From IMG/VR virus record IMGVR_UViG_3300030102_006999: a stretch of DNA of 64,000 bases. One strand, written 5' to 3'. Numbering within the stretch: position 1 is the stretch's first letter; each line of letters opens with the position of its first letter. The translations under genes were made by a program, and so were the position numbers. Below are positions 4,506 through 48,180 of the stretch, one piece after another. The DNA comes from an uncultured virus (IMG/VR IMGVR_UViG_3300030102_006999) (Duplodnaviria > Heunggongvirae > Uroviricota > Caudoviricetes). The notes below the pieces were generated by a model. The model was not told the origin of the DNA. It saw only the letters and a program-made list of their open reading frames with translations, and did no database searches.

Positions 4506-4533
4506 ATATAATAGATAACAGGAGGTAGTATAA

Positions 4534-5786: not shown

Positions 5787-5788
5787 AT

Positions 5789-6188: not shown

Positions 6189-6207
6189 TAATAGATTGGA
6201 GAAATAG

Positions 6208-8083: not shown

Positions 8084-9105
8084 AACTAGATAAGTGTTTG
8101 TCGTATGACGATGTTCTGCTTGTGCCACAATATTCGGACATCAAGACTAGAAAAGAAGTTGACCTGTCATCTAAGTTAGATGATAGCTTAACCTTCAGTC
8201 TACCTGTTATATCCTCTCCTATGGATACAGTTACCGAATCACACATGGCTGCTGCCATGTTTCGACACGGAGGTTTTGGCGTTGTTCATCGATACAACAC
8301 TATTGAAGAGCAAGTAAAACTTCTACAAACTTTAGACAAATTGGAGCCTTCCTCGATAAAAGCAGCCGCCGTTGGTATCAGCGGAGATTATTTCGAGCGC
8401 GCTTCAGAATTAGTAAATGCGGGCGCACAAATCTTGTGCTTAGATGTTGCCCATGGCCATCACGTTATGATGAAGTCAGCACTCAAGGCTCTCCGCCAAA
8501 ATTTTTCTGTGCACTTGATGGCTGGCAACGTAGCCACAAAAGAAGGTTTTGAAGACCTCGCCGCATGGGGAGCTAATTCTGTAAGATGTAATATCGGGGG
8601 AGGCTCCATTTGCTCCACTAGAGTCCAAACAGGACATGGCATGCCCGGCCTACAAACAATTCTTGATTGTGCTGATTCACCTTTGGCTCAAGATGTCAAA
8701 GTGATTGCCGATGGAGGTTTAAAGAGCAGTGGAGACATTGTTAAAGCCCTTGGCGCCGGCGCAGACTTTGTGATGGTTGGTTCGCTATTGGCAGGATCGA
8801 TTGAGACTCCGGGTAGAATTATTGTCACCAAGGATGGTAGCAGTCATAAAATCTATAGGGGAATGGCCAGCAAGTCTGCCCAAAACTCTTGGAGAAACAA
8901 GACGAGTTCTATTGAAGGGGTATCAACCACCGTACCATTTAAAGGACCAGTGGGAGATATACTAGAAGAGTTGGCAGTAGGTGTTCGTTCCGGATTATCT
9001 TACTCTGGCAGCCGCTCCATAACGGAGTTTCAATCAAAGGCTAAGTTTGTTATACAAACGTCTGCCGGCCAATTTGAGAGCGCCGCTCACATTTTAAGGA
9101 GGTAG
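8080..9105 (+). CDS. guaB: IMP dehydrogenase/GMP reductase family, CBS-less (GuaB-like)
   Basis: YDDVLLVP, SSPMDTVT, DVAHGH, GSICSTR (catalytic Cys), IADGG, YRGMAS; start at ATGA overlap with dut. Confidence 0.85.
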   Translation: MKLDKCLSYDDVLLVPQYSDIKTRKEVDLSSKLDDSLTFSLPVISSPMDTVTESHMAAAMFRHGGFGVVHRYNTIEEQVKLLQTLDKLEPSSIKAAAVGISGDYFERASELVNAGAQILCLDVAHGHHVMMKSALKALRQNFSVHLMAGNVATKEGFEDLAAWGANSVRCNIGGGSICSTRVQTGHGMPGLQTILDCADSPLAQDVKVIADGGLKSSGDIVKALGAGADFVMVGSLLAGSIETPGRIIVTKDGSSHKIYRGMASKSAQNSWRNKTSSIEGVSTTVPFKGPVGDILEELAVGVRSGLSYSGSRSITEFQSKAKFVIQTSAGQFESAAHILRR

Positions 9106-10675: not shown

Positions 10676-10996
10676 ATGAAAGCAGTAGCATGGAAAGAAA
10701 GAAAAACAAACAACAAACTAATGTACATCCTTCAAATTGACGGGATTAAGGGGGTTAGAAGTGAAAATAGGGTCACAAAAGATCTGTCAGGATGGCAAGC
10801 ATATGCCGAAGGGTACGATGCTGTAAATAAAGCCAAGACAATTATATTTAAAAACTATTTCGACACGGAAGACGATTGGAAGAAATGGGCTAGAGAGTTT
10901 CCTTACTCGCTAACAGAGATCGGCAAGAGCGGAAAGGAAAAGCCTTATAAACTGGGTCTTGACTATATTAATTCACCCCGAAGGAGAGCATCGTAA
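10676..10996 (+). CDS. hypothetical protein
   Basis: GGAG RBS; coupled to clpP (TAATG). Confidence 0.7.
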   Translation: MKAVAWKERKTNNKLMYILQIDGIKGVRSENRVTKDLSGWQAYAEGYDAVNKAKTIIFKNYFDTEDDWKKWAREFPYSLTEIGKSGKEKPYKLGLDYINSPRRRAS

Positions 10997-11595
10997 TGTC
11001 TAAAGAAAATCAAACAGAAGAAAATCAAACAGAAGAAAATCAAACAGAAGGGTTGGGGCAAGAAGATCTATTACAAAAAATACCCCAAGAGCCTAGAGCA
11101 ATTGGAATCTTTCAAGACATTGACGAGAAAAAGGCAGAAGAACTTATATACGCTCTCACTTTATACGCGGCAGATAATAAAGATCCGGTAGAGTTTTACA
11201 TTTCCACCAATGGCGGATCTGCAACTGACATGTTTGCTGTATATGATTATGTTCGCACTCTGCGAGATGATATAGATATTTGCACTTATGGTCTTGGGAA
11301 AGTAATGTCTGCTGGCGTTTTGCTTTTAGCGTGCGGTACGCCGGGAAAGAGAAAGATTGGTAAATATTGCAGAGTTATGATTCATTCTGTTATTGGCTTA
11401 AACTCAGGCGCCCTACACGACTTAGAAAATGAAATGCAGGAAATACACAAGATTCAAGAAATATATATTGAGGCTCTGTGTGCAGAAACTAAATTTACAA
11501 AAAAGAAACTAAAAGATTTGATTTCAAAGAATGTCAATGTTTATTTATCGGCAGAGGAGGCAGTAAGTTACGGTATTGCTGACATTATAGTCTAG
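10996..11595 (+). CDS. clpP: ClpP-family protease subunit
   Basis: YISTNGGS, GKVMSAG (Ser), RVMIH (His), YLSAEEAVSYGIAD; the catalytic Asp position reads Asn. Confidence 0.88.
   Translation: MSKENQTEENQTEENQTEGLGQEDLLQKIPQEPRAIGIFQDIDEKKAEELIYALTLYAADNKDPVEFYISTNGGSATDMFAVYDYVRTLRDDIDICTYGLGKVMSAGVLLLACGTPGKRKIGKYCRVMIHSVIGLNSGALHDLENEMQEIHKIQEIYIEALCAETKFTKKKLKDLISKNVNVYLSAEEAVSYGIADIIV
11005..11049 (+). repeat. 3x15-bp tandem repeat (ENQTE x3) at the ClpP N-terminus
   Basis: GAAAATCAAACAGAA x3. Confidence 0.9.
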
Positions 11596-11609
11596 GAGGT
11601 AAATGGATC

Positions 11610-12248
11610 ATGTCTACTATTAAAGGTTTGCACGCCAAAATGATTGCAGAACAAGTAAAGCAAGTAATGGATAAGAAAGGTTATGTTTTCTTTGAGAAGG
11701 GCAAATTTAATGTCAATATAATTGGTGTTAGAAGTTCTTCTAAAAAATCTAATCTATTCGATGATTACATGCTTTTAATCTATAAGAACAAAAAGGATCA
11801 GTGGGAAGTTCAATCTTCAGTTATAACGACGGATCCCGGAGAAAAGTATTTAGTCAACCCTATTAACGATAAAGGTGCGGCTATTTTGGTACCAAACCAA
11901 TATAGGGGAGTCTATCGGCTAGACATACATGCCAGAAGCAATAGCAGATTCGCTCACGAAGCCCTTTGTCAACGTGGAGCACCACTGCAAGTGTGGAGAG
12001 ACAATAATAAAGATAAGGTTCTGGACCACGACCCAGAAACGACAGATGAGGGATGGTTTGGGATTAACATCCATCGCAGTAAATCATCAGGAGAAGCAGA
12101 TTACGTCGGATCTTACTCAGCCGGCTGCCAAGTTTTTAAAAACAGTACAGACTTCAAGATATTTTTAGATGTTATCAAGAGAGCTAAGAGTTTGTACGGA
12201 AATAGTTTTAGCTATACTCTCTTGGAAGAAACTGATTTCGAGGACTAA
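11610..12248 (+). CDS. L,D-transpeptidase/YkuD-like cysteine peptidase, possible lysin
   Basis: GINIH...SAGCQ matches the His...SxGC catalytic motif. Confidence 0.55.
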   Translation: MSTIKGLHAKMIAEQVKQVMDKKGYVFFEKGKFNVNIIGVRSSSKKSNLFDDYMLLIYKNKKDQWEVQSSVITTDPGEKYLVNPINDKGAAILVPNQYRGVYRLDIHARSNSRFAHEALCQRGAPLQVWRDNNKDKVLDHDPETTDEGWFGINIHRSKSSGEADYVGSYSAGCQVFKNSTDFKIFLDVIKRAKSLYGNSFSYTLLEETDFED

Positions 12249-12256
12249 TTAGTATT

Positions 12257-13939
12257 ATGAATGAACTAGAAAACTTAATAGAAGAACACTATTCAAAAAA
12301 ACAAAATAATAAGTTTGCATTTCAAGACCTAATTGATTTGGTTGAATCATTATATGATGACTTCGCCCCGGTGCTAAATGAGAGAAAGTCTCCCCCAAGA
12401 ACTGCACAAAGTATGAACGTCGAAATGTCCTTCATTCCCGAAATCAATGTCAGTGAATTGGGCTGGTCAGATGTCTCTACGAACGAAGCCGGGGAAACCA
12501 TCAAAGGACCACAACGCCGCTTGCTAGAGGATTATTTAAATAATATCGCCGGTAGCACCTTGTCAGAAAAAATCGCCAGCCTAGAGGCCTTTTACGAAGA
12601 TGGTGATCAAACTCTCTTAGACGACGCAGAGAATCGTTCAGAAGTAATCAAGAAGGTCATGTCTTACTTGGTTTTCTATAAAACTTTGACAAAGGTTATT
12701 ACTAACTTCAACGCATCTTCAGCTGGATTTAGTTTTGAATCGTTTCTTGCAACGCTGTTAGATGGAAAACAGATCCCTGCTTCTGGCGCAAATACAATTG
12801 CCGACTTCACTACAGGAGATAATATCCCAATCAGTCTCAAGCTGTACGCCGAGAAATCTCTTCAAGTAGGTGGCAGTTATGTTGCCTTGGTAGATGACTT
12901 GGTTGAACCTAAATTCAATCACCCCGGTATGAGATATGTCGTTTGCACCAAGAACCTGCAAGGTAAAGGCTTGGAGCAAAATGGATCTATTAAATTTTAT
13001 GAGTTTGATATTGATATAAACAATGTTGCTAATATTATTGGCGTAAGCAGCGACAAATCAGCAAAATGTATTAGACTTCCTCGTGCAATTGAGACGGCTG
13101 ATGCTGATTACGACATTAACGCTACACTGCCATCAGCTAGAAATATGCCTAGTATCGAAGATCTGAAGAAGATTTATGAAGACAATGTTCGAAAAAACTT
13201 GAAGGATAATGGGTCAACTATCTCTGAAGAAGAACTTAGGGCCCTTTTGGATAAAATTGGCTGGGGCACAAAAGAGGATGTATTCAAGCCCGCCAATCCT
13301 GACCGTTTTGGTGGTGTGGAACAAGGCGTTGTTTTCGGAATCTCCAAGACAGATAGAACAAAGTTGGGTAACCTTCTTATGCCCGATACCCAAGCCGAGA
13401 ATGACGTTAGAAAAGCTATTGGCTTTAATGACAAAAGAGCGATTATTTCAGTCTTTACAAAAGCTAATGATGATCTTGTTTCTCAATTCACAAGAGCAAA
13501 ACTTAGTGGAGAAAGGGGAAAGCAATTGGCAGCTATGGCCAAGTCTGGAGAGTTTTTGTCCCCGGAAGATTCAGTGAAGTTATACAATACATTGTCTGAA
13601 GATATGAAAAGGGTTGCTCTCAAAAACTCTCTAGGATATTTAGAAACTTACCAGTGGCACCTAAACAGAACACAGGCTACAAACACTTCTGCACCACTAA
13701 ACGCAGAATACCAAGGCGAAATCCAAGTAGGTGCTCAAGCCGTAGTAAAGTTGTTGAACGATGTTAGAGACCTACTAAACCAACAGGTATTTCAGATTTT
13801 CAGTTCTTTGAAATCTTTATCTGATAATCTTAACTCTTATTTTGCTGGCGGTCTCGCTGATGATAGACGAGCAGCTGGCGCAATTGATGACGCGCAACAG
13901 ATCGAAGCAAACACTATTGAAATAAAAGATCAAAAATAA
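12257..13939 (+). CDS. 560-aa protein with PD-(D/E)xK-like nuclease motif
   Basis: AGFSFESFL...IADF...ISLKLY; ATG lies 5 nt after ACTAATTA. Confidence 0.5.
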   Translation: MNELENLIEEHYSKKQNNKFAFQDLIDLVESLYDDFAPVLNERKSPPRTAQSMNVEMSFIPEINVSELGWSDVSTNEAGETIKGPQRRLLEDYLNNIAGSTLSEKIASLEAFYEDGDQTLLDDAENRSEVIKKVMSYLVFYKTLTKVITNFNASSAGFSFESFLATLLDGKQIPASGANTIADFTTGDNIPISLKLYAEKSLQVGGSYVALVDDLVEPKFNHPGMRYVVCTKNLQGKGLEQNGSIKFYEFDIDINNVANIIGVSSDKSAKCIRLPRAIETADADYDINATLPSARNMPSIEDLKKIYEDNVRKNLKDNGSTISEEELRALLDKIGWGTKEDVFKPANPDRFGGVEQGVVFGISKTDRTKLGNLLMPDTQAENDVRKAIGFNDKRAIISVFTKANDDLVSQFTRAKLSGERGKQLAAMAKSGEFLSPEDSVKLYNTLSEDMKRVALKNSLGYLETYQWHLNRTQATNTSAPLNAEYQGEIQVGAQAVVKLLNDVRDLLNQQVFQIFSSLKSLSDNLNSYFAGGLADDRRAAGAIDDAQQIEANTIEIKDQK

Positions 13940-13942
13940 TAC

Positions 13943-13971
13943 TTGACACATAGTACAAATGTGGTTATAAT
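13943..13971 (+). promoter_or_regulatory. sigma70-type promoter for groEL
   Basis: TTGACA-17-TATAAT. Confidence 0.8.
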
Positions 13972-14001
13972 ATAATATAGTCAAAAAGAAAGAGGTGTAA
14001 T

Positions 14002-15573
14002 TTGACAAAGCATTATGATTCTGGTTCTAGCATGAATCAAAAGATTTTATCTGGTGTTAATATTCTTGCGGATAATGTAGCATCTACACTAGGCCCTCGC
14101 GGCCGAAACGTGATCCTGCAAGAGAAAGGTAAACGACCTATTATCACTAAGGACGGAGTAACTGTGGCGGAGTTTGTGGATCTTGAAGATCCATTCGAGA
14201 ACGCCGGAGTTCAGATTATTAAACAAGCAGCAGCACAAACTAATCTCGATGCTGGTGATGGAACAACAACTTCCACAGTATTATCTCGCGCCATCTTAAA
14301 CGAGGCTCAAAAGTATATTTCATCCGGTATCCCACCAATTGAACTTCAGCGAGGCATTGAACTAGCCGTTGATGCAATCACTGAAGAGCTAAAGTCAGTC
14401 GCTCGCCCTGTGATGTCCGAAGAGGATATCAGCCACGTAGCAACCATTTCAGCTAATAACGACAAGACCATTGGATTCTTGATTGGCAAGGCCGTCGCAG
14501 CCGCTGGCAAGGATGGTGCAATTACTGTAGAAGAAGCTCGGTCTATGAAAACAAGTCTTGACCTAGTAGAAGGTTTCCGAATGGATGCTGGCTATGCTGC
14601 TTCTGCTTTTATCACCGACGAGCGCCGGCGCGCCGCAACTTATGATGACCCTCTCTTGCTTGTGACGGATGAGAAGATCGACCGCGTTCAAGATATTATG
14701 CACATCTTAGAACTTGCTGCTAGAGAGTCTCGCCCTCTTATCTTTATTGCAACAGAGATTGAAGGTCAAGCATTGGCCGCTATGATTATGAACGCTATCA
14801 AAGGAACTCTAAAAGTAGCAGCTATCAAGGCTCCACGATACGGCGAAGAGCGTAAGAATATCTTGCAAGACTTGGCAACTTCCACTGGAGCGACTTTTAT
14901 CTCTCGCTCTCAAGGTAAGAAGCTCCAAGACGTAAAACTCGTTGACTTGGGAACTTCAGACCGAATTGATATCACCCGATACCAAACTACGATTGTTGGA
15001 GGTAACGGAGATCAAGACGAGATCGAAGTACGATTAGACAACCTGCGAGAAGATTTAACTAGAGAAGATAATCTAAACGAGTGTGAAAAGATTCAAGACC
15101 GAATCGCACGTTTGTCTAGCGGTATCGCAATCATTCGCGTAGGTGCCTCAACTGAAGTAGAAATGATTGAAAAGAAGCACAGGATCGAAGATGCCCTTGA
15201 AGCAGTGAAGTCGGCACAATTAGAAGGCATCGTACCCGGTGGTGGCTGTGCTCTCTTGTCAGCAGTAAGAGTGTTAGATAATGTTTCTTGTCCAAATAGC
15301 GACCAAGTATTGGGTGTAGAGATTATCAGGCAAGCAGCCTCGGCACCTCTTCGTCAGATGGCAATCAACGCCGGCGAATCTCCAGATATTATTTGTGCCA
15401 AAGTATGTGAAACTGATTCCGATACAGGATATGATTTTGTAACAGGACAAGTAGTTAACATGTGGGATAAAGGTATCCTTGACCCCGTTAAAGTTACTCG
15501 CACAGCTTTGCAGAACGCTGCTTCTGTTTCTGGCACATTATTAACTACAAATTGTGCAGTCATTCAAAAGTGA
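14002..15573 (+). CDS. groEL: chaperonin GroEL (TTG start)
   Basis: TLGPRGRNV, ITKDGVTVA, AGDGTTT, RIEDAL, GIVPGGG, ILDPVKV; GAGGTG RBS. Confidence 0.96.
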   Translation: MTKHYDSGSSMNQKILSGVNILADNVASTLGPRGRNVILQEKGKRPIITKDGVTVAEFVDLEDPFENAGVQIIKQAAAQTNLDAGDGTTTSTVLSRAILNEAQKYISSGIPPIELQRGIELAVDAITEELKSVARPVMSEEDISHVATISANNDKTIGFLIGKAVAAAGKDGAITVEEARSMKTSLDLVEGFRMDAGYAASAFITDERRRAATYDDPLLLVTDEKIDRVQDIMHILELAARESRPLIFIATEIEGQALAAMIMNAIKGTLKVAAIKAPRYGEERKNILQDLATSTGATFISRSQGKKLQDVKLVDLGTSDRIDITRYQTTIVGGNGDQDEIEVRLDNLREDLTREDNLNECEKIQDRIARLSSGIAIIRVGASTEVEMIEKKHRIEDALEAVKSAQLEGIVPGGGCALLSAVRVLDNVSCPNSDQVLGVEIIRQAASAPLRQMAINAGESPDIICAKVCETDSDTGYDFVTGQVVNMWDKGILDPVKVTRTALQNAASVSGTLLTTNCAVIQK

Positions 15574-24100: not shown

Positions 24101-24307
24101 ATGGGAAATAAAAGAAAACACTTTGGAACTTGCGGGATGGTTTACACGATTGTATATCAAGAGTATAATGGCCAATCCGCCACCGCCTTGGTGTACGGTC
24201 CACCAGACCAAAAAAAGATGATGACTTTGGTAATGAGAGAGTACAAGCGATTGTTGTGTTTGATAAAGGGAAATCAGCAAGTTTTCTTTCCACCTAGTAA
24301 GTCTTGA
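24101..24307 (+). CDS. hypothetical protein
   Basis: GAGG RBS; stop is the TGA of the first repeat hexamer. Confidence 0.6.
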   Translation: MGNKRKHFGTCGMVYTIVYQEYNGQSATALVYGPPDQKKMMTLVMREYKRLLCLIKGNQQVFFPPSKS

Positions 24308-24358
24308 CATTCTCTTGACAACTTTTTTGTTGACGCGAGCCGTCAGCCATGCTAAATT
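24304..24358 (+). promoter_or_regulatory. compound promoter repeat copy 1
   Basis: TTGACA 24304, TTGACA 24315, TTGACG 24330, TAAATT 24353. Confidence 0.85.
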
Positions 24359-24387
24359 ATTATTACAAATCACACAGGAGTCCGTAA

Positions 24388-26313
24388 ATGGAAAACGATT
24401 TATCTTTAAACATTTCAACACACTTTGATATGGATTGTTGGCTTGCAGAAAATGACGGTCAAGATTTAGTAATCCCAATGGGGAAGAGTAAGCGCGACCC
24501 TGATGCGACATATTCTAAATCTGGTTGTTTGCAGGGTTTGAGAAAATATCAAGAAAACTTAGCGGCTGATGCACTAGTTCCAGAAACCTATTACTACGAT
24601 TCTTCTATGGCAGCCGGTATCGATATATATACATATATCGCAGGAAGTGACAATGTTCACATCACTCTGGTAGCCCAAACCCAGAGTGGCAAGACATCTG
24701 TTGCTTTCGCAACTTTTACGATGGTTAAAATTCACCACCCTACTTCGAAGCATATGGTGTATATTTCTATGCCAGCAGACAAAGATTTGGCAAAACAATC
24801 TGGACGAAGGCTAAAGCCGTTATCAAAAGTAGTTGTCGGTAGAGGTTGCTTGAGTAACATTTATTTAAACGCAGTTTATTGGTATGATAAGTGGTCTGCG
24901 TGCAATACTGAAGATGAACGACGGAAGGTGGAGCTAGACGCATTGACAGTGCAAGCAGCCCAAGGTAATGACTGGCTTGCTGCCCCGGTTATTTTCGACA
25001 ATACAGTCCTTTTTCTGGATGAATCTCATTTTGGAGCACAAAACACAAGCCAAATAAACAGAGTGCTTGAGCTTTGGGGTGTTCCTTTAAATAAGGACCC
25101 GGTGACATGGGAACGCTCTAATGTAAAGATTGTTACATCTAGTGCAACCCCTCATGCAGAAGTCGCATCATTGCGTTTGAGGCCTTGGAGCAAGAAAGTT
25201 ATTATGCGTCCGGGTAAAGGTTACATTGGACTACCAGAAATGCTGGCGGCAAACAAAATCATGGAAAGCTGGACTCTAAAGACTGAAAAAGACGTAGAGA
25301 GGCTAGTAGGCGAAGTAATTGAGCCACATTTGCTTACGCTCGGCACTGGCTATGGCTTAATCCGCCGAAGGACTCGACGACGCGGCTTGAATTTGCCATT
25401 ATCTCTTGAGAGGAAATTAAAATCTAAAGGATTTAGGGTGAAAAAAGGTATTCCAAAGTCAGGTGATGAACGACAATATGATGTAGCAATCATTGAATAT
25501 GACCAAGCAAGCAGGGATCAAAAAATGGATGATTTTCTTACAACCCCGGCGGCAAAAGTAGTGTCGAATGGAAAGTGGTTATCAAATCAGCCCCCTATAC
25601 CAACTATTATTTTAGTGAAGGAGAAGTGTAAACTAGGCGATACTGTGTCGAACCAGCATGTTAAGTTTGTTTTTGAGCGTATTAGCGTTAAGAAAAACGA
25701 CCCTGCTTTTCACGAGCAGTCATTAGCGGGCCGAATGACAGGATATGAAACTCATATACCAATGATTTATTCGCATACGCCATCAATTGTCCATTCCTGT
25801 TTTCACATTATTAGCGGATACCAGCCGGAAACAACTCCAAACGGTGCAAAATATGTAAAAACTAAGTCAAAAAGAGGATATCCGGCTATGTCTTTGACTT
25901 TGGACTTGAGCAAGATGTCAGATGAAGAACTTTCGGAAGTTCTTTGCAAGGGGAGGGCACAAAGTTTGCAAGGTAAAGCTATGGCATACAAGGCAATTTA
26001 TCGAGAATCTTTAGAGGCATCATCTGGGAGTTTAAAAGAGAAACTGAAAAGCATTAAAGATAAAAGAGGTAGAAGATATTCAATGTGGAACTGGGATGAC
26101 GCTGACAGCCGCTCCTATGTACACCCAGAAAAAGGCGAAGAGATTCAGCAAAATAGCAAATATATGTCGCATGGAAATCCGGCTTGTGTTTTTGTTGACA
26201 AAGAAGGGGACAGCAATACTTTGAAAGTTAGTTGGTATTTTGCTAAAGATGAAGTCACTGTCAAAGAAACATCATTGAATAATAAGAGCATGTATGCTAT
26301 TGCGGCAAAGTAG
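24388..26313 (+). CDS. SF2 (DExH) helicase-like protein
   Basis: AQTQSGKT Walker A, FLDESH, SAT motif III, EQSLAGRMTG motif VI-like. Confidence 0.75.
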   Translation: MENDLSLNISTHFDMDCWLAENDGQDLVIPMGKSKRDPDATYSKSGCLQGLRKYQENLAADALVPETYYYDSSMAAGIDIYTYIAGSDNVHITLVAQTQSGKTSVAFATFTMVKIHHPTSKHMVYISMPADKDLAKQSGRRLKPLSKVVVGRGCLSNIYLNAVYWYDKWSACNTEDERRKVELDALTVQAAQGNDWLAAPVIFDNTVLFLDESHFGAQNTSQINRVLELWGVPLNKDPVTWERSNVKIVTSSATPHAEVASLRLRPWSKKVIMRPGKGYIGLPEMLAANKIMESWTLKTEKDVERLVGEVIEPHLLTLGTGYGLIRRRTRRRGLNLPLSLERKLKSKGFRVKKGIPKSGDERQYDVAIIEYDQASRDQKMDDFLTTPAAKVVSNGKWLSNQPPIPTIILVKEKCKLGDTVSNQHVKFVFERISVKKNDPAFHEQSLAGRMTGYETHIPMIYSHTPSIVHSCFHIISGYQPETTPNGAKYVKTKSKRGYPAMSLTLDLSKMSDEELSEVLCKGRAQSLQGKAMAYKAIYRESLEASSGSLKEKLKSIKDKRGRRYSMWNWDDADSRSYVHPEKGEEIQQNSKYMSHGNPACVFVDKEGDSNTLKVSWYFAKDEVTVKETSLNNKSMYAIAAK

Positions 26314-26336
26314 CTAGTCGTATAGTATATTGTCTC

Positions 26337-26391
26337 TTGACATTTTCTTGACAACTTTTTTGTTGACAGTCAGAACAGGACGTGCTAAATT
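26337..26391 (+). promoter_or_regulatory. compound promoter repeat copy 2
   Basis: hexamers at 26337, 26348, 26363; TAAATT 26386. Confidence 0.85.
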
Positions 26392-26414
26392 TACATTACA
26401 AAACGAGGTGACTT

Positions 26415-26600
26415 ATGTCTAAAAACTTGGAGAGATATTGGCAGCTAGAATATCAGTTGCAGCTTTTGTGGGAAATGCCCCGCGACTGCCGCGACCATAA
26501 GCATATTGAAAAGCTGACAAATGAACAAAAAACCATTATCAATAATCTTCGAGATGACGAACGTCGCCTGTTTGAAGATTCGTTTTTATCCCATCACTAG
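26415..26600 (+). CDS. hypothetical protein
   Basis: GAGGTG RBS after repeat. Confidence 0.7.
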   Translation: MSKNLERYWQLEYQLQLLWEMPRDCRDHKHIEKLTNEQKTIINNLRDDERRLFEDSFLSHH

Positions 26601-26610
26601 AGAGAAAACC

Positions 26611-26841
26611 ATGAAAGATGCTGTAGCACACATAAATGATAACCTGTCTGTAGATATTGAGCTTCTACGCACACAACGTAATACCCTTCTGGAGATTCTG
26701 GAATGTGTCGATGGTTCAAAGCCTGACTTGTTAGAGGACTTTTTCGGTCTGGATAAACAACGGGCTTTCGACGCACTAAACGGAGTGACAAACTTTCTCG
26801 ATGCTGTCTTGGATGATGTCGAGCTTGGCCACACATTATAA
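26611..26841 (+). CDS. hypothetical protein
   Basis: Internal ATG start MKDAVAH. Confidence 0.6.
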   Translation: MKDAVAHINDNLSVDIELLRTQRNTLLEILECVDGSKPDLLEDFFGLDKQRAFDALNGVTNFLDAVLDDVELGHTL

Positions 26842-26863
26842 ATTTAACTAAGGAACAAACTAA

Positions 26864-27220
26864 ATGATTAAAGAATGTAAACACTGTCAAATCGAATTCG
26901 ACCTTTACTCACGTCGCAAAAAGCACGTCGGCGGCTATATTAACGAGTGTCCTGATTGTGTAGAAGAAAACGGAGGTGACCAATCACCACCGCGATATCT
27001 CGGTGTCACCGCTGGTAATGGCAAAATGTGCGATGTTACTATTCTAAAGTTTGAAGACCAAGCATCTCGCAACTCATTTCAGAAAGCATGGCGCAATAAT
27101 TCAGGACAAAACTTAGGAAAGGAGTGCCAGCTAGGCGAACATATTTCATCAACCGCTGGATTAAAGTTCAGTATTGTATCAGAAAATCGAGGTAATGATA
27201 ATCACAAAGGAAAGTTCTAA
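26864..27220 (+). CDS. Zn-ribbon protein
   Basis: CKHC...CPDC; AAGGA RBS. Confidence 0.65.
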   Translation: MIKECKHCQIEFDLYSRRKKHVGGYINECPDCVEENGGDQSPPRYLGVTAGNGKMCDVTILKFEDQASRNSFQKAWRNNSGQNLGKECQLGEHISSTAGLKFSIVSENRGNDNHKGKF

Positions 27221-27342
27221 TGGAGCATTTAACTAACTGTCATGGCGAGTGGACGATACTTGCCGCCTCAATGGGCTATTTCTCGTTTGTTATTTTGTGG
27301 ATAAGATTAAGATGGCAGACGTTCAAAGGAGATAGAGGATGA
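27220..27342 (+). CDS. small membrane peptide, 40 aa (not in ORF track)
   Basis: MEHLTNCHGEWTILAASMGYFSFVILWIRLRW...; TAATG coupling. Confidence 0.55.
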   Translation: MEHLTNCHGEWTILAASMGYFSFVILWIRLRWQTFKGDRG

Positions 27343-27482
27343 AAAAGAAAGCAAAAAAGCGAAATATCGTAGCCCTACAGATGCAACACCGACACAAAAA
27401 TGGAGGGTCTGCGGGCTTTCACAGTAAGAAAGGTTACTCTCGAAAGGAGAAACATAAAAAATGCGTTTTGACATTCTCTTGA
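27339..27482 (+). CDS. ArfA-like basic peptide, 47 aa (not in ORF track)
   Basis: MKKKAKKRNIVALQMQHRHKNGGSAGFHSKKGYSRKEKHKKCVLTFS; AAGGAG/GAGG RBS. Confidence 0.55.
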   Translation: MKKKAKKRNIVALQMQHRHKNGGSAGFHSKKGYSRKEKHKKCVLTFS

Positions 27483-27522
27483 CAAAATAACTGTTGACTT
27501 ACCACAAAATAATCTGTATAAT
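27468..27522 (+). promoter_or_regulatory. compound promoter repeat copy 3
   Basis: hexamers at 27468, 27479, 27494; TATAAT 27517. Confidence 0.85.
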
Positions 27523-27552
27523 TACTTCATAAACCAACACAGGAGCAACCAA

Positions 27553-27711
27553 ATGCCATTCGACCCAAACTATAAGCACATCGTAAGTTCAGAAGAATAC
27601 TATGAAAATATGTACGACTTCGGCGGAGACTATGATTCAATGCCGGAAGATATGGAGGATGAATGTCCAGAATGGATTCAAGAGCAGCTTGATGAAGAAC
27701 TGCCATTCTAA
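27553..27711 (+). CDS. acidic 52-aa peptide ending DEELPF, SSB-tail-like (not in ORF track)
   Basis: AGGAG RBS; first gene after repeat 3. Confidence 0.7.
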   Translation: MPFDPNYKHIVSSEEYYENMYDFGGDYDSMPEDMEDECPEWIQEQLDEELPF

Positions 27712-27715
27712 ATAA

Positions 27716-27961
27716 ATGCAGATAGAACCGGGCCAAATCCTCGACGAATATGATGTCTTGACAAATGAGCTTCTAGCTAGGTATATTGTTGTTGATACTA
27801 CAGATACATTTTCGTCGAATCGTATCAATGTTTTATGCGTGTACGATTCTCAAGAGTTTGATGTGCCCGGTTCTATCACATGCTTAGATGATAGTAGTAT
27901 ATTGGGAAATATCACTATTTACTGGAAATTGGATGGAGTGAGGATACTGGATGAAGATTAA
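27716..27961 (+). CDS. small beta-barrel paralogue family member
   Basis: IEPGQIL..ARYIVV..PGS..YWK. Confidence 0.7.
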   Translation: MQIEPGQILDEYDVLTNELLARYIVVDTTDTFSSNRINVLCVYDSQEFDVPGSITCLDDSSILGNITIYWKLDGVRILDED

Positions 27962-28232
27962 AAATGGCCAAATGATTGACCAGATGGCAGACTTCACTGC
28001 CCATAGTCAGGCTGTAGACGAAGCCCCATATATAATGTCTCGATATATTGTTATAGGGCAAGATGAAGAACTAGCCCATTTGTATGTTGTAAAGGGGTAT
28101 ACCGACCAACACGAACGAATTATCAATGACGTATCCGTACCGGGCATGATAGAACATTTATCGAAAAAGTATATTGTATCTAAAGAAGAATCCATAAGCA
28201 ACTTCTACTGGGAAGTGGTTAATGATATTTAG
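27951..28232 (+). CDS. small beta-barrel paralogue family member
   Basis: IKNGQMI..SRYIVI..PGM..YWEVV. Confidence 0.7.
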   Translation: MKIKNGQMIDQMADFTAHSQAVDEAPYIMSRYIVIGQDEELAHLYVVKGYTDQHERIINDVSVPGMIEHLSKKYIVSKEESISNFYWEVVNDI

Positions 28233-28518
28233 ATTTTGGGATACGCTAGACTTGAAAGCTGGCGATGTAATACGAATAAACGGAGATGAAATACATTCTT
28301 CTGTGCATATTGTTACACAAACTTATCGCCGTCCGTATGGTGATGGTAAAGTATTCGGAGCAGATGGGTATACTCTTTTATGTGATGAACCTTATTATGA
28401 CGATGATATGAGAGTTGGAGAGATAAACCCGCTCTACTTAGAAGAATTTTTAAAGCGTTCAGAAAGTAACTCTTTGGAAGTGCTATACCGTGTATATCCC
28501 ACTACTAATAAGCCCTAA
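28222..28518 (+). CDS. small beta-barrel paralogue family member
   Basis: LKAGDVI..VHIVT..VGEI. Confidence 0.65.
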   Translation: MIFRFWDTLDLKAGDVIRINGDEIHSSVHIVTQTYRRPYGDGKVFGADGYTLLCDEPYYDDDMRVGEINPLYLEEFLKRSESNSLEVLYRVYPTTNKP

Positions 28519-28780
28519 TCAGGGTGACATTATAGAAAGATATTGCACTCACAGGCGAGAGCTTGTGGGTGTTTTTCTGGTTATAAATCCTAGAAAGAAA
28601 GGAAGAAAGGACTTAATGGAGGCATGGTGTCTTTATAACTGCTACTATGAAGCTAACTTTAATAGGTTCAAAGGACTAAAGGCGGGGTCAAAAGTATCGA
28701 TTCATAGAATCACGCTACTTAGTGAGCATGAAGCCAAGCAAACAGGGGAGGCGAATTACTACGTTGTAAGGAAACAATAG
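28490..28780 (+). CDS. small beta-barrel paralogue family member
   Basis: PNQGDII..VFLVI..AGSKV. Confidence 0.65.
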   Translation: MYIPLLISPNQGDIIERYCTHRRELVGVFLVINPRKKGRKDLMEAWCLYNCYYEANFNRFKGLKAGSKVSIHRITLLSEHEAKQTGEANYYVVRKQ

Positions 28781-28784
28781 ACTC

Positions 28785-28839
28785 TTGACATTTACTTGAC
28801 AACTTTTCTATAGACAAGCCCATCTCAAACGTGTATAAT
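28785..28839 (+). promoter_or_regulatory. compound promoter repeat copy 4
   Basis: 28785, 28796, TAGACA 28811, TATAAT 28834. Confidence 0.85.
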
Positions 28840-28864
28840 GTATATGTAAATCAGGGAGAACTCG

Positions 28865-29104
28865 ATGTCCAACTCAAACAACAATGAAATCGTTAAATTG
28901 TCTACGTTAAACGTAGAATCTATCCAAGACTGGAACCAGATGGTCCCGGTTATTCGAGAGGTTTTCCAAGTTATGAACGGTCATACCGATTGGGCATTTC
29001 ATCACGAAGTGATAATGGACGGCCTTTTGTCTCTTGACCTTTCGGCGACTAAGAAAGCCTGTAGTGCGTTTCTGGAGGTCTTTCGCCCGCAGGAGATTCA
29101 ATAA
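28865..29104 (+). CDS. hypothetical protein
   Basis: GGGAG RBS after repeat. Confidence 0.7.
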   Translation: MSNSNNNEIVKLSTLNVESIQDWNQMVPVIREVFQVMNGHTDWAFHHEVIMDGLLSLDLSATKKACSAFLEVFRPQEIQ

Positions 29105-29105
29105 C

Positions 29106-29306
29106 ATGAACGAACTTGTAGCCACTTATATTATCAATAATTGCCCTTTGGAAGTTTATAAATGCTTTACACATTCTGGTAATGATGCTGAAGCGTTTTA
29201 TGATTTTGAATATCAGGGCCGCTGTATAAACCTTGGAGAACCTTGGTTCGACGACGGAGAAGGTATCCCCTCTAAGGAGGAAATCTGTGAAGTATTTTTC
29301 TCTTGA
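29106..29306 (+). CDS. hypothetical protein
   Basis: AGGAG RBS, MNELVATY; stop inside repeat 5. Confidence 0.6.
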   Translation: MNELVATYIINNCPLEVYKCFTHSGNDAEAFYDFEYQGRCINLGEPWFDDGEGIPSKEEICEVFFS

Positions 29307-29357
29307 CATTCTCTTGACAACTTTTTTGTAGACAAGACTTTTTCAAACGTGTATAAT
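29303..29357 (+). promoter_or_regulatory. compound promoter repeat copy 5
   Basis: 29303, 29314, TAGACA 29329, TATAAT 29352. Confidence 0.85.
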
Positions 29358-29406
29358 GTATATACAAGTTGAGCGATTCACTAACCCAAACAAAGGACTA
29401 TCACAC

Positions 29407-29751
29407 ATGGGAATTAGAAGCGACGTAGCATTAGGAATGACTTTGGAAGTATACCAAGCACTTTCAGATGAAAGTAGAGAAACTATTAGAGAGTGGTGTG
29501 GAGAACACCAAGATATTGGCGACGAAGGTATTTTATTTGTTGCCGATAGTGTGAAATGGTACGCCGATTCATTCGATGATTTAATCGCCTTGTATGAGGA
29601 TTTAGAAGACCAAGACTTCGAGCAGTTTCATGTCATTGTTGCAACACCGGAATACCCCAATAATACAGACTTAGATATCGGCGACTGGTACGATAACCCG
29701 TGGGGAATTTATAAGTATACAAGTTGCGAATTACGATGGGACCACGCATAA
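29407..29751 (+). CDS. acidic phage hypothetical protein
   Basis: MGIRSDVALG...VKWY; AAGGA RBS. Confidence 0.7.
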   Translation: MGIRSDVALGMTLEVYQALSDESRETIREWCGEHQDIGDEGILFVADSVKWYADSFDDLIALYEDLEDQDFEQFHVIVATPEYPNNTDLDIGDWYDNPWGIYKYTSCELRWDHA

Positions 29752-30023
29752 TGCAGGACTTTCCTTATGAAATTGGAGATATTATCTCTACGCCGGATTT
29801 AATCGGCGGAGTAGCTGGAATATTGGTTGAAGTAGAAAAGCTGGATGAGCCTGACGATACCTCGTGTTTGAATGTCACAACGTCTTTTGCGGCTAGGCAT
29901 CACCAGAATACCCGGACGCATCGAATCAAACTGGCTATTATCCAGAGTTGTACCTCTGCCTTCAAACCGGGCGAGGTATGTGACTTTTGGCCGCCACAGG
30001 GGGCGACATGGAAGAAGTGGTAA
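29751..30023 (+). CDS. small beta-barrel paralogue family member
   Basis: YEIGDII..GILV..KPGEV..TWKK. Confidence 0.7.
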   Translation: MQDFPYEIGDIISTPDLIGGVAGILVEVEKLDEPDDTSCLNVTTSFAARHHQNTRTHRIKLAIIQSCTSAFKPGEVCDFWPPQGATWKKW

Positions 30024-30385
30024 CTTCAGAAGATATACAGGTAGGTGATATTATCTCGGAGAGAGGCATAATATCAGAGCGTTGGAATCCAGAATACCGC
30101 GATATGGGCGCATACATGAATGAATTTACTCGCTTCGTCGTATTGTCCAAGGTTAACGTGGAAGATAGGCCAATGCTAATAACAGGCGCACGCCGGTTTT
30201 ATTTCAAAGTAGCTATTCTGTACGCTATTCCAGAAATAAGGGAAGTAATGAATAACGCGCACACTTATAAACTTACTGACTGGGAAGTTGACGATGAAGA
30301 TTACAGCGACGAGGCAACTTATTGGTGCTTAGAAACGGGCGAAGATGCCCCAGTAACACCGAGAGAGTGGGTAAGACTAGGGTGA
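30008..30385 (+). CDS. small beta-barrel paralogue family member
   Basis: IQVGDII..TRFVVL..VAILY..YW. Confidence 0.65.
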   Translation: MEEVVTSEDIQVGDIISERGIISERWNPEYRDMGAYMNEFTRFVVLSKVNVEDRPMLITGARRFYFKVAILYAIPEIREVMNNAHTYKLTDWEVDDEDYSDEATYWCLETGEDAPVTPREWVRLG

Positions 30386-30621
30386 AACTTGAAGATTTAG
30401 AAGTAGGTCATTTGTATAGGTATCAAGTCTTTCCCGGCGCACCCGTAGGGTATTGGATAATATTGGAGGAATTTCCTACCGACTCGCGGAGTGTGCATAG
30501 TAGGGACGGTTCGCCCCACCGAAGGTTCCGCTGGTTTTGCTTACAGGGTCCGGTTCTGAATAGGTACATGATTTTTGATATACCTGAAAGTCAAGTTCAT
30601 GCCTTAACTTTAATCTCTTGA
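30382..30621 (+). CDS. small beta-barrel paralogue family member (GTG start)
   Basis: DLEVGHLY..YWIILEE; stop inside repeat 6. Confidence 0.6.
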   Translation: MKLEDLEVGHLYRYQVFPGAPVGYWIILEEFPTDSRSVHSRDGSPHRRFRWFCLQGPVLNRYMIFDIPESQVHALTLIS

Positions 30622-30672
30622 CATTCTCTTGACAACTTTTTTGTAGACAAGACTCAAAATAACGTGTATAAT
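30618..30672 (+). promoter_or_regulatory. compound promoter repeat copy 6
   Basis: 30618, 30629, TAGACA 30644, TATAAT 30667; 67 bp identical to copy 11. Confidence 0.88.
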
Positions 30673-30699
30673 GTATACATAACTTAAAGGGGTTAATAC

Positions 30700-31296
30700 A
30701 TGAGCGAACAACTTAAACGACTCGAAACTTTCCTAGCGCGTACCGATATCAAGCCTTCGGAGCGCAACTTTGGCGACTCTTTGAAACAATGGTTTGGTGT
30801 GAAAGGCCGCCTGTCTCAAGGCCAGTGGTCTGCATTTCAGAGGATGGAAGCCCGATATGACCCAAAAGTAATTGCCCAGCGTCAAGCATGGTATGACCAG
30901 TGGGATGAAGAAAAGGCAAAAAACATTCGCGTTGCCGCTGAATATTATAAGTCAAACCCTCCTTATTTCGCGGGCGCTTGTCAAACTATCTTAGAAGATG
31001 AGACTTATATTCCTACCGAAAAGCTGTACCGCTCTATGGTAGAGAATAAGTTCGTTCAGAAGGTGCTTAACACTATTAACTCCGAGCCTCAATTTGAAGT
31101 CGGTTCGTTAGTGCAGGTTCGTAAGACTGCATCAAAGTCTGCTTACAAACTCCGCAACCGTGTCGCTATGGTCGTAGCAAACAACGGCCCGGTTCGCAGT
31201 CATGCAAAGGGTGCAAAAGTATATACCATCCTGCCTTTTGGGGAGACCGGGACGGTCCAGATTCAAGAGCGATTTCTAAAGCGGAAGAGAGGTTAA
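30700..31296 (+). CDS. hypothetical protein with C-terminal KOW/SH3-like domain
   Basis: FEVGSLVQVR...AMVV in the C-terminal third. Confidence 0.7.
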   Translation: MSEQLKRLETFLARTDIKPSERNFGDSLKQWFGVKGRLSQGQWSAFQRMEARYDPKVIAQRQAWYDQWDEEKAKNIRVAAEYYKSNPPYFAGACQTILEDETYIPTEKLYRSMVENKFVQKVLNTINSEPQFEVGSLVQVRKTASKSAYKLRNRVAMVVANNGPVRSHAKGAKVYTILPFGETGTVQIQERFLKRKRG

Positions 31297-31297
31297 G

Positions 31298-31576
31298 ATG
31301 TCGTCTATTTATCCAAAGCCCGGTAGCAAACCCCTCTCTCCTTCAGAGGTGAAAGAGGGTGACGTTTTATTCTGTACTTATCATAAGAGTGCCATGGCAG
31401 GTTATAAACCGGCTATTGCGAGAAAGTATCTAGTTTTAAAGGTTGATAAAAGGCCGTGGGCAGGCCCTAAAGTCACTTGTGTTATATTGTACGCCCATCG
31501 ATATAAGAATCCCGGCGAAATAGCTATCTTAGACCTCCCCGCGCTGCCTATCGACGTTTGGGGTATGGAGGCATAA
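31298..31576 (+). CDS. small beta-barrel paralogue family member
   Basis: VKEGDVL..RKYLVL..VILY..PGEI..VW. Confidence 0.7.
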   Translation: MSSIYPKPGSKPLSPSEVKEGDVLFCTYHKSAMAGYKPAIARKYLVLKVDKRPWAGPKVTCVILYAHRYKNPGEIAILDLPALPIDVWGMEA

Positions 31577-31852
31577 TTGGCTTTAGAAGTTGAAAACCCA
31601 CAAGTAGGCGACCTGCTTGACCTATTCTGCGATGGAGAACTTATTTCAAAGTGCCTTGTTGTTGGAAAATCTCCTTCATATGAGTATTATGACGAGGAAC
31701 CCACAGATAAGAATCAGGAGTTTGTACTTACTTTATATAATGTATATAAAAAGTCGCCATCTTCACCAACCTGTCATAAGGTAGGAGAAAGCTGGCCTAT
31801 ATCGAAAAGGATTATGGAGCGTTACGTTTATACTTGGAAGAAGGCCAAATAA
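31577..31852 (+). CDS. small beta-barrel paralogue family member
   Basis: PQVGDLL..KCLVV..VGES..YTWKK. Confidence 0.7.
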   Translation: MALEVENPQVGDLLDLFCDGELISKCLVVGKSPSYEYYDEEPTDKNQEFVLTLYNVYKKSPSSPTCHKVGESWPISKRIMERYVYTWKKAK

Positions 31853-32100
31853 TGGAGGTTTGAACTAGTATCTCAAAGTTAAAACTATATAAAGAGAAAA
31901 CCCAGACCAATATCTGACAGGTCTGGCTTGTCCATTGGCGTACTTAAAACACGATAATGGATAGGGCACCCGCCGAGAGGGTGAATCAATAAAGAAATTG
32001 CAGGTTAGGAAGGCGGGAATCCGAGAAAACCGCTTAGGCTTGTCTACCAATAGTACCAAGCACGCCTTGAGATACTTGTTGAAACCTTGATTATTTACTC

Positions 32101-32155
32101 TTGACATTTACTTGACAACTTTTGTATAGACAGGCCCGCTTCGGACGTGTATAAT
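32101..32155 (+). promoter_or_regulatory. compound promoter repeat copy 7
   Basis: 32101, 32112, TAGACA 32127, TATAAT 32150. Confidence 0.85.
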
Positions 32156-32180
32156 AAACCTATCAAACACGGAGGTTTGA

Positions 32181-33074
32181 ATGTTTTGCGGTGAATCTGT
32201 AACGAATAGAGCTATTAACTTACTTATAGAGAAGCGGGGCCTAAAGGGACACGTTGCTGCTGACAGGTTTGTCTCTGATTTTGTAGCTTATTTGATATCT
32301 ATTGCTCATACGAAAGGTTTTGACCCAAATGAAACTCTTGACTTGCTAGAAAATGATGAAAACTTAACTTGTAACACTATTTTTAGTCAAAACTTTCGTA
32401 AGTCTTTAATGGAGTTAATCTCTCCAAAACTTAGGAACAACGCACTTTTTATGGAAATGTTTCCAGTATTGATGCGAAGCAACGGAAAGGGAATTGGAAT
32501 CGGGGAAATGGTGCTTCCACTTATAATATCTAATTATAGATTCTCTGTAGAGAGCGACGGGGCTTATGGAGAGGGTAAAAAGGCAGAAATAAAAAAGAAC
32601 GGTGCAAGCCTAAAGCCCATGAAAACCGGCGATACCGACAAAGGACTAGTCGATACTCTCAATAGGGAGCTTTGGAAGGGCACAGTTCCCGGCAAAAGAA
32701 GAGAAAAGCTGTTCAGAGCACACTTATCAGCAATTGGCTCAAATCCAGATTATTCCGAATATATCAAAAGACTATATCCCACCGCGAAAGACGAGTATAA
32801 AGCCGAACTTATCGCGGAACTCAATAATAACTATTCCGATAAAGAAGCCGTCTGCAACGCTTTCGGTTTGTTCGCCTTAAAGCAATATAAATCTGTAGAT
32901 GGATGGAGTAATATCTTATACATTGATGACGAAAACGGAAATATCGTAAATATATCTAATATTGATACCTTGAACATCAATGAAATGAAAATAAAGTTTA
33001 CACCCCACTTATATAGAGGTCGAGACACTCAAGCAATTGCAGATGGGTACGTCAATCTCACAATAAAGAAATAG
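32181..33074 (+). CDS. PD-(D/E)xK-like nuclease
   Basis: GIGIGEMVL...SDG...AEIKK; GGAGG RBS. Confidence 0.55.
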   Translation: MFCGESVTNRAINLLIEKRGLKGHVAADRFVSDFVAYLISIAHTKGFDPNETLDLLENDENLTCNTIFSQNFRKSLMELISPKLRNNALFMEMFPVLMRSNGKGIGIGEMVLPLIISNYRFSVESDGAYGEGKKAEIKKNGASLKPMKTGDTDKGLVDTLNRELWKGTVPGKRREKLFRAHLSAIGSNPDYSEYIKRLYPTAKDEYKAELIAELNNNYSDKEAVCNAFGLFALKQYKSVDGWSNILYIDDENGNIVNISNIDTLNINEMKIKFTPHLYRGRDTQAIADGYVNLTIKK

Positions 33075-33084
33075 GAGCTAACCC

Positions 33085-33405
33085 ATGAAGCATTTTGTAG
33101 TCCAGCGAGAAAACCATACTATCCAGCAACGCGATATCGACCTCATATTTGGCCCTGTAGAGGCCCACGAGGATATTTTGGTAGTAGACCATGATGACCT
33201 TGCTGTGATGGCTGTAGAGGCCGGTCTGTTCCCTTCTAGGGGCCAATCAAGGCGCAACGGACTAGGTGGCCCAGCCCCTCACGGTCTGCATCAGATTGGC
33301 ACCAAAAAGAAGCGATTTTGGGTCTGGAATCCAATTGCGGGCGATGAAAAGGTAACTTTAAAGCCTTCTTTTGATAGAACTCAAGGCTGGTTTCGGGGAA
33401 GATAG
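33085..33405 (+). CDS. S4-like RNA-binding protein (TyrRS C-terminal-like)
   Basis: DLAVMAVEAGLFPSRGQSRR...IGTKKKRF. Confidence 0.5.
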   Translation: MKHFVVQRENHTIQQRDIDLIFGPVEAHEDILVVDHDDLAVMAVEAGLFPSRGQSRRNGLGGPAPHGLHQIGTKKKRFWVWNPIAGDEKVTLKPSFDRTQGWFRGR

Positions 33406-33408
33406 GCT

Positions 33409-33606
33409 ATGAAAGTGGAAGATTTAAAGGTGGGCGGTTGTTATAACTTAAAGAAAAGGTCTTTTATCTTGGTCAAAACTAAACAATACAACAATACAGC
33501 TATTACCGGCTATCACGTTTACTGGATTCGTCACCCTAAAAAGCAAGGTGAAACCTCTATTTATTGGCCAATGGAGTTTCAAGAGTTTCTAAATCGATGG
33601 TCTTGA
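33409..33606 (+). CDS. small beta-barrel paralogue family member
   Basis: DLKVGGCY..FILV; stop inside repeat 8. Confidence 0.6.
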   Translation: MKVEDLKVGGCYNLKKRSFILVKTKQYNNTAITGYHVYWIRHPKKQGETSIYWPMEFQEFLNRWS

Positions 33607-33657
33607 CATTTTTTTGACAACTTTTCTATAGACAAATACTTCTCTAGGGTGTATAAT
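33603..33657 (+). promoter_or_regulatory. compound promoter repeat copy 8
   Basis: 33603, 33614, TAGACA 33629, TATAAT 33652. Confidence 0.85.
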
Positions 33658-33689
33658 TACATAGTAACTTAAACAGGAGTCTATCACAC

Positions 33690-47836: not shown

Positions 47837-48180
<344 letters not shown>

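Follow-up and report, generated by a model that had tools for sequence, protein, structure and literature searches.

An acidic microprotein family of uncultured marine T4-type phages with a C-terminus resembling the bacterial SSB tip

Why would a bacteriophage encode a free-standing peptide of 52 amino acids which finishes in residues much like those that bacteria place at the extreme C-terminus of SSB, the protein by which their single-stranded DNA is bound? This question is raised by a small gene on a 64,000-nt stretch of DNA from an uncultured tailed virus (the window). A sequence-only reading of the window had proposed that the peptide mimics the SSB tail, and thereby uncouples host genome-maintenance enzymes or acts as a decoy for defences that sense SSB; it had made the proposal depend on conservation of the terminal Leu-Pro-Phe.

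The partners of the SSB tip include the chi subunit of Pol III, DnaG primase, PriA, RecQ, RecO and ExoI, that is, proteins of replication, restart, recombination and repair. The tip reads DDDLPF in SSBs of the Firmicutes, and ssb-113 is a Pro-to-Ser mutation. Published work credits the bacterial tip with being the single docking peptide that recruits at least 17 partners to single-stranded DNA (ssDNA). DDDIPF is described as a conserved hub for many partners (PMC5872125, PMC10018359, PMC7145534), for which DnaG and chi compete (PMC3632105), and which also binds back onto the OB fold of SSB itself (PMC3936761).

The gene, its expression signals and its setting

The open reading frame is real and is exactly that quoted in the sequence-only reading. 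It occupies 27553..27711 on the plus strand (52 codons and a stop; ATG at 27553, TAA at 27709–27711) and specifies the 52-aa peptide MPFDPNYKHIVSSEEYYENMYDFGGDYDSMPEDMEDECPEWIQEQLDEELPF, the C-terminal letters of which are ...CPEWIQEQLDEELPF. Seventeen residues are Asp or Glu as against one Lys or Arg, the net charge is approximately −16, and nine residues are aromatic; the earlier description of the product as acidic thus holds. Among eight ungapped members of the family described below, 30, 21 and 43 of the 52 first, second and third codon positions, respectively, are variable. Since the third positions vary most, the locus fits a translated gene.

Directly upstream lies the third copy (27466..27532, plus strand; repeat search, families D1–D3) of an early-promoter repeat present in eight copies, which start at 24302, 26335, 27466, 28783, 29301, 30616, 32099 and 33601. 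The peptide gene is the first behind copy 3, as had been claimed. This copy contains a core promoter of the sigma-70 type, TTGACT-17 nt-TATAAT (27494..27522, plus strand), matching the consensus at 11 of 12 positions, and upstream of it TTGACA hexamers at 27468 and 27479. The AGGAG ribosome-binding site noted previously was found at 27541..27545 on the same strand, 7 nt 5' of the ATG. The repeats as a set extend over 24302–33676 and are 33–78 nt in length. Every copy stands at the head of a short operon made up of small genes and carries two extra TTGACA sequences 5' of T[TA]GAC[AT]-17-TATAAT, making three −35-like hexamers.

Both signals of the peptide gene are kept among relatives. A promoter with at least 11 of 12 matches is present no more than 150 nt upstream in 32 of the 42 related loci having enough upstream sequence, and AGGAG occurs within 20 nt of the start in 31/48, several of the others having mis-set or cut starts. 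From the promoter type we infer that the peptide is expressed early. The RNA data comprised one run holding 0.05 of the region's words and three metatranscriptomes from samples containing the region's DNA; the metatranscriptome contigs (contigs only) cover parts of 26800–27043 and 27837–28202, and none lies over the peptide ORF. In L001 (2860–2885) and in L084–L086 we noticed by eye, just 5' of the peptide start, a stretch whose end resembles a tRNA gene's 3' end (...GTTCAAATCCTGTCACGACCA), and tRNA genes may replace the upstream promoter repeat in some relatives.

The upstream neighbour (26864..27220, plus strand) specifies a 118-aa Zn-ribbon protein with a CxxC...CxxC arrangement and no match in Pfam or PHROG. 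It is conserved across loci: of the 34 with more than 700 nt of upstream sequence, 32 have it upstream of the peptide gene. It is a possible functional partner of the peptide. The gene downstream is conserved in only 14/46 loci. The interval from the Zn-ribbon gene to the promoter repeat contains a very basic frame of 47 codons (MKKKAKKRNIVALQ..., 27339–27482), and small genes continue after the peptide gene at 27716–28780 and on to about 33600.

All the larger frames of the window are on the plus strand. Its genes include those for a PolIII-alpha-type polymerase, a PurA/PurZ-like enzyme, a Dam-type methylase, a dUTPase/DCD-like protein, a GMP-reductase-like protein, ClpP, GroEL and UvdE, together with a tmRNA and a tRNA. 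At 1061–9105 the polymerase gene is followed by an adenylosuccinate-synthetase-like gene (its PHROG is named for PurZ-type enzymes), and the Dam-type methylase, dUTPase/dCTP-deaminase-like and GMP-reductase/IMPDH-like genes lie in the same interval, which may constitute a nucleotide-modification or base-replacement module. The ClpP-like protease and GroEL-type chaperonin genes are at 10996–15573, the tmRNA (Rfam RF00023, 123.6 bits; tag peptide ANNNNQFKQIALAA) at 47837–48178, and the tRNA-Ala at 54366–54441.

Neither DNA nor protein of the region matched any of 50,697 records of cultured phages. The window polymerase shares no more than 30% identity with any of these, so that no host can be assigned through a cultured relative. 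To judge by the strong TTGACA/TATAAT promoters and the AGGAG sites, the host may have signals like those of E. coli. At least half of the sampled words of the region's DNA were recovered from each of six marine metagenome runs, of which two may be the source and four belong to two further studies.

A related viral contig, G001 (167,580 nt, 92% complete by CheckV), carries an orthologue of the peptide in the same gene order. It specifies tail sheath, baseplate wedge, portal, terminase, a UvsX-like recombinase, a DnaB-like helicase, primase, SbcCD, a gp55-like late sigma factor and PolIII alpha, and from this gene content we take it to be a T4-type myovirus, a distant one, whose polymerase is of the bacterial type.

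A PF00436-type SSB is absent from the window (108 ORFs), from G001 and from G002. The SSB of G001 is of the gp32 type (PF08804, 44.9 bits; phrog_1192) and ends ...AAFNELTGN, without the SSB tip; the peptide is the only ORF of at least 40 aa in G001 whose tail is acidic and whose last residue is hydrophobic. Because the gp32-type protein is tip-less, there is no obvious way, judging by this one relative, in which large amounts of a bacterial-type tip would interfere with the SSB that the phage itself makes.

A conserved family and its C-terminal tip

Homologs were sought by a word-indexed search of 5.8 billion proteins, which gave nine small proteins of 51–57 aa, and by a profile search of 1.84 billion representatives, which gave 13 matches: 11 small family members, a chimera of 71 aa and a repeat protein that matched spuriously. 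A scan of metagenomes yielded 445 stretches with the pattern, 49 of which were confirmed (48 family ORFs and one chance internal match). The family thus assembled has 47 distinct members, from marine metagenomes and viral contigs, and no longer homolog or fused form was present among 7997 scored candidates of 131–2000 aa. This is a real, conserved and uncatalogued microprotein family of marine T4-type phages, confined to uncultured marine phages that are abundant.

The peptide has no match in Pfam (E ≤ 0.001; 108 window ORFs scanned), PF00436 included, or in PHROG, including its anti-restriction families; at 52 aa it is, as had been argued, too short for an OB-fold. In the ESM Atlas the best score was 0.82, to unnamed clusters and below the noise level of the tool. 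The best match of a profile search of the PDB, to DsrC ('DDWCPEWVK'), has an E-value of 1.2 and was rejected as chance.

Four candidates match the helix only internally and were set aside as chance matches. Three are a phage tape-measure protein (L004), a 210-aa ORF (L094) and the repeat protein already mentioned (P0010, 1846 aa). The fourth, a 356-aa protein of a Chromatiales MAG (L005), contains EWIREQLDEELPR, which resembles a stretch of the peptide; because this unrelated protein matches by chance, helix-plus-acidic sequences are evidently not unique. The 71-aa chimera (P0021) joins a short-chain-dehydrogenase-like N-terminus (Rossmann GxxxGxG) to the last 17 residues of the family, DDCPSWIQEQLDEELPF, and may be an assembly artefact or a recombinant.

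Alignment A3 contains the 47 distinct sequences. It omits L046 (identical to the window), L056 and L088 (cut by contig ends), exact duplicates, and P0004 and P0015, which differ by a few residues from L047 and L072. The mean column identity is 45%. Six residues are invariant (P5, E14, Y17, C38, P39 and W41) and a further eight are conserved in at least 90% of members (D4, E15, E44, Q45, D47, E48, P51 and F52). In the middle part the acidic positions vary while the aromatic and hydrophobic ones are kept. Two motifs stand out besides the tip: S-E-E-Y-Y, residues 13–17 (27589..27603, plus strand), at the start of a predicted short helix, and C-P-E-W-I-Q-E-Q, residues 38–45 (27664..27687, plus strand), which runs into a predicted amphipathic helix at 40–47.

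AlphaFold2, given 10 and then 47 sequences, returned pLDDT values of 63.6 and 69.7, a pTM of 0.27 and no compact fold. Helices were predicted at 13–20, 32–36 and 40–47, with no strands and with the last five residues as coil; the best-predicted block is the amphipathic helix 40–47 (E-W-I-Q-E-Q-L-D; mean pLDDT 85). Such a low-confidence model is what one expects of a peptide which would fold only on a partner. Since the invariant residues are P5, E14, Y17, C38, P39 and W41 and not the terminal Pro-Phe, a second interface besides the tip is indicated, and judged by this pattern it may even be the main one. None of these residues has a counterpart in SSB.

The tip itself, L-D-E-E-L-P-F (residues 46–52; 27688..27708, plus strand), is followed directly by the stop codon, leaving the carboxylate of F52 free. 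Pro-Phe stands at the C-terminus, likewise with a free carboxylate, in 42 of the 47 distinct members. Among the DNA loci both CCA and CCC and both TTT and TTC are used for these two residues, that is, the codons have undergone synonymous changes. In all 42 of these members position −6 is Leu, Ile or Met and position −5 is Asp; position −4 is Glu, Asp or Ala, and −3 is Glu or Asp. The residue before Pro (−2) is Leu, Ile, Met or Val in 33 of them and Ala or Thr in the other nine.

Two lineages (L069/P0012 and L073) have acquired an insertion of five residues after the helix, and their C-terminus is again DDEIPF. Because the tip was rebuilt after the insertion, the acidic-x-P-F element behaves as a separate unit, independent of its distance from the helix. 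The conservation pattern argues that the terminal Pro-Phe is under selection. Of the terminal Leu-Pro-Phe singled out in the sequence-only reading, then, the Pro-Phe stands (42/47, with synonymous codons and a rebuilt tip) and the Leu does not, its place being taken by any of L, I, M, V, A or T.

Five members end otherwise: IPL (L072), ILF (P0017), NFF (L087), ILNHEV (L065) and PNPRRI (P0002). In L065 (1590–1690; on the same contig as L001), comparison with L063, L064 and L053 reveals a 5-nt deletion just 5' of the ancestral stop, which shifts the reading frame past the old TTC-TAA and on into the start of the next gene; because of this frameshift we regard its ending as a derived lesion and not as an alternative tail. 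The five nevertheless keep the remaining sequence, from which it follows that the tip is dispensable for retention of the gene.

With frames counted from stop to stop and of at least 30 codons, a [DE][DE][DE][ILMV]PF tail occurs in one of 1042 frames of the window and in one of 2839 of G001, in both cases the peptide gene. The expectation for the strict six-residue tail, calculated from composition, is about 1e-6 per protein. Because such tails could arise by chance over many windows, the weight of the argument rests upon conservation (Pro-Phe in 42/47).

Bacterial SSBs were sampled as the best 30 loci of 61 genomes of one bacterial phylum. All 61 genomes had an SSB match, and one of the 30 sampled loci was cut before the tail, leaving 29 complete. 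Every one of the 29 tails ends in Pro-Phe; −2 is Ile (28) or Val (1), positions −3 to −5 are acidic in 27–29 of the 29, and −6 is hydrophobic in 27/29; the usual form is hydrophobic-D-D-D-[IV]-P-F, from which a few positions depart in single cases. As the positions from −6 through Phe match in the family and in the SSBs, the likeness covers seven positions and not Pro-Phe alone.

A proposed free SSB-tip mimic and its competitors

Based upon these features we might suggest that the peptide is a free mimic of the SSB tip, which would occupy the pockets of host genome-maintenance enzymes that read this tip. Host RNA polymerase would transcribe the gene from its early promoter, which is near consensus, and translation would begin from a ribosome-binding site that matches the consensus; this strong pair of signals would fit the high copy number that such competition demands. 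The product, largely unfolded and strongly acidic, would present hydrophobic-D-E-E-x-P-F-COOH to the pockets. As it has no DNA-binding domain, it would fill a pocket without bringing the enzyme to ssDNA, and would in this way block the SSB hub of the host by competition. The helix before the tip (C-P-E-W-I-x-E-Q-L) probably adds contacts which confer affinity or selectivity for one partner, and phage replication need not suffer, given a gp32-type SSB of its own without the tip.

The binding, the target and the action by inhibition rather than recruitment are all things that we infer from the sequence and its conservation. The Pro-Phe conservation and the seven-position pattern speak for the SSB-tail reading; the five members lacking Pro-Phe and the invariant residues elsewhere speak against it. 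Because of these two points and the looser −2 position, and with any binding putative, we place the probability of the mimic reading at about 0.45.

Its boldest form is doubtful: that a marine T4-type lineage mass-produces a natural free SSB tip as a peptide of 50–75 residues from its strongest early promoters, saturates the pockets of host replication restart, recombination and repair, and so would switch off the SSB hub within minutes while replicating with a tip-less gp32-type SSB. An uncontrolled complex prediction of the peptide (alignment A2) with E. coli ExoI (Swiss-Prot EX1_ECOLI), taken as a stand-in for the host enzyme, scored 0.15 and 0.22, the mark being 0.32, and weighs on neither side.

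Phages are well known to make early proteins, small and acidic, that imitate DNA or attach to RNA polymerase, and the peptide might belong among them. On that explanation it would be an acidic early effector with a different target: it might, for example, imitate a nucleic acid to counter restriction or nuclease systems, or bind the host's RNA polymerase or some other hub. The interface would consist of CPxW and EEYY, and Pro-Phe would be a generic hydrophobic anchor. The net charge of about −16, the invariant residues outside the tip and the persistence of members without Pro-Phe (5/47) are all in keeping with it. We consider it rather unlikely, nonetheless, for it is not the acidic residues of the middle part that are positionally conserved, as noted above, and AlphaFold2 predicts no rigid fold which could present a DNA-like array of charges. 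PHROG offers no match, its anti-restriction families included, and the explanation leaves the retention of D-[ED]-[ED]-x-P-F-stop and its rebuilding after an insertion unaccounted for. Membership in the Ocr/ArdA kind of DNA-mimic anti-restriction proteins was rejected on the lack of a PHROG or Pfam match, the pTM of 0.27 and the variable acidic positions of the middle part.

Recruitment in place of blockade is the essence of another alternative, in which the peptide would be a bivalent adaptor supplying the tip in trans: its N-terminal and CPxW parts would bind a putative phage component (for example the tip-less gp32-type SSB, the Zn-ribbon protein or a part of the replisome), and its tip would recruit the host's SSB partners. 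Two conserved modules besides the tip, SEEYY and CPEW, are available for such a role, and in G001 a gp32-type SSB without the tip does occur beside replisome genes of the bacterial type (PolIII alpha, DnaB-like helicase, primase). The neighbouring Zn-ribbon gene is kept in 32/34 loci, and the idea that phage ssDNA-binding proteins use DDDIPF to reach host proteins is already in print (PMC13687109). Against this, most loci have a promoter between the Zn-ribbon gene and the peptide gene, and a chain of 52 residues that is largely disordered can hardly accommodate a stable second domain; on balance we hold the adaptor to be unlikely.

Still less probable, in our view, is that the acidic tail and terminal Phe serve the phage's own replisome, the resemblance to the host SSB tip being incidental. 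The model here is T7 gp2.5, whose C-terminal tail is acidic and unstructured and in which deletion of F232 is reported to prevent contact with T7 DNA polymerase (10.64898/2026.02.22.705581). By analogy the PolIII-alpha-type polymerase encoded in the window would be the partner. The peptide, however, has no DNA-binding or enzyme domain to tether, its seven-position match to SSB includes Pro and goes beyond an acidic stretch plus terminal Phe, and its gene is surrounded by other small early genes, at a distance from the replication module (approximately 153.7 kb as against 117–134 kb in G001). For the same reason it does not belong to the gp2.5-type tail class: the acidic tail and terminal Phe are present, and the DNA-binding domain is absent.

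That the likeness is a short-motif coincidence without functional meaning is very improbable: an expectation of about 1e-6 per protein is not negligible over very many windows, and chance internal matches to the preceding helix exist (L004, L005, L094), but neither accounts for Pro-Phe in 42/47 members with synonymous changes, a variable −2 position and a tip rebuilt after an insertion.

Three other assignments were tried and rejected. The peptide is not a bacterial SSB (PF00436), since it has neither a Pfam match at E ≤ 0.001 nor the predicted strands of an OB-fold. The consensus for beta-clamp binding is QL[SD]LF or QLxLxL; in the peptide Q45 and F52 are seven apart with three acidic residues between them, and the insertion in L069 and L073 alters the spacing and keeps DDEIPF. 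Lastly, the defence decoy put forward in the sequence-only reading finds no footing, as DRT4 and DARNA, in the passages available, concern ssDNA-bound phage SSB, and a sensor of the bacterial SSB tip was not found in that literature. Deletion of F232 in T7 leaves activation of DARNA unchanged (passages including 10.64898/2026.02.22.705581).

Novelty and comparison with known systems

In the non-subscription full-text literature searched, we found no printed description of a stand-alone phage SSB-tip peptide. The closest printed idea found there is that of the DUF669 proteins with DDDIPF, yet these are DNA-binding proteins; what is new here is that the tip-bearing protein, itself not an SSB, has no DNA-binding domain of any kind, and the function proposed for it is plausible. 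If the mimic reading is true, the peptide would represent a new and very economical form of viral host takeover by a stand-alone SSB tip; in the boldest form of that reading it would fall in an undescribed class of phage host-takeover effectors that mimic a short linear motif of SSB. It could then serve as a probe for those SSB partners which matter during infection. The tip is already pursued as an antibacterial target; the peptide would be a natural lead for high-affinity tip mimetics, and its conserved helix may show a route to affinity. Because only abundant uncultured marine phages carry the family, a function would also have been assigned to a piece of marine viral dark matter.

With the C-terminus of bacterial SSB (DDDIPF in E. 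coli) the peptide shares its location at the extreme end of the chain, the order hydrophobic, three acidic, a residue that is aliphatic in most members, Pro and Phe-COOH, and placement in a non-helical and poorly ordered end, the last as predicted for the peptide. It differs from SSB in lacking the OB fold, the tetramer core and the long disordered linker, being 52 aa in all. The tip differs also in its acidic residues, which are mostly Glu, in the freedom at −2 (L/I/M/V/A/T), and in following a conserved amphipathic helix with an invariant Cys-Pro-x-Trp.

Prophage DUF669 proteins, which bind ssDNA and end in DDDIPF, and for which the authors suggest contacts with host proteins (PMC13687109), resemble the peptide, as do PF00436-type phage SSBs, in being mobile-element copies of the host SSB tip that presumably reach host partners. 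These proteins bind ssDNA and can replace SSB as a recruiting platform, whereas the peptide has no DNA-binding domain. The comparison with T7 gp2.5 rests upon an acidic, unstructured tail whose last residue, Phe-232, is reported to be needed for a protein contact (10.64898/2026.02.22.705581); that tail is part of an SSB with an OB fold, and what it binds is the polymerase of the phage itself.

Closest in their proposed mode of action are the synthetic SSB-Ct peptides and small-molecule mimetics, for which the proposed principle is likewise competition by a free tip for the pockets of SSB partners (PMC10143822, PMC5872125) and which are pursued as inhibitors (PMC10143822). Those are man-made; the peptide described here would be their natural, genetically encoded counterpart, with additional conserved parts.
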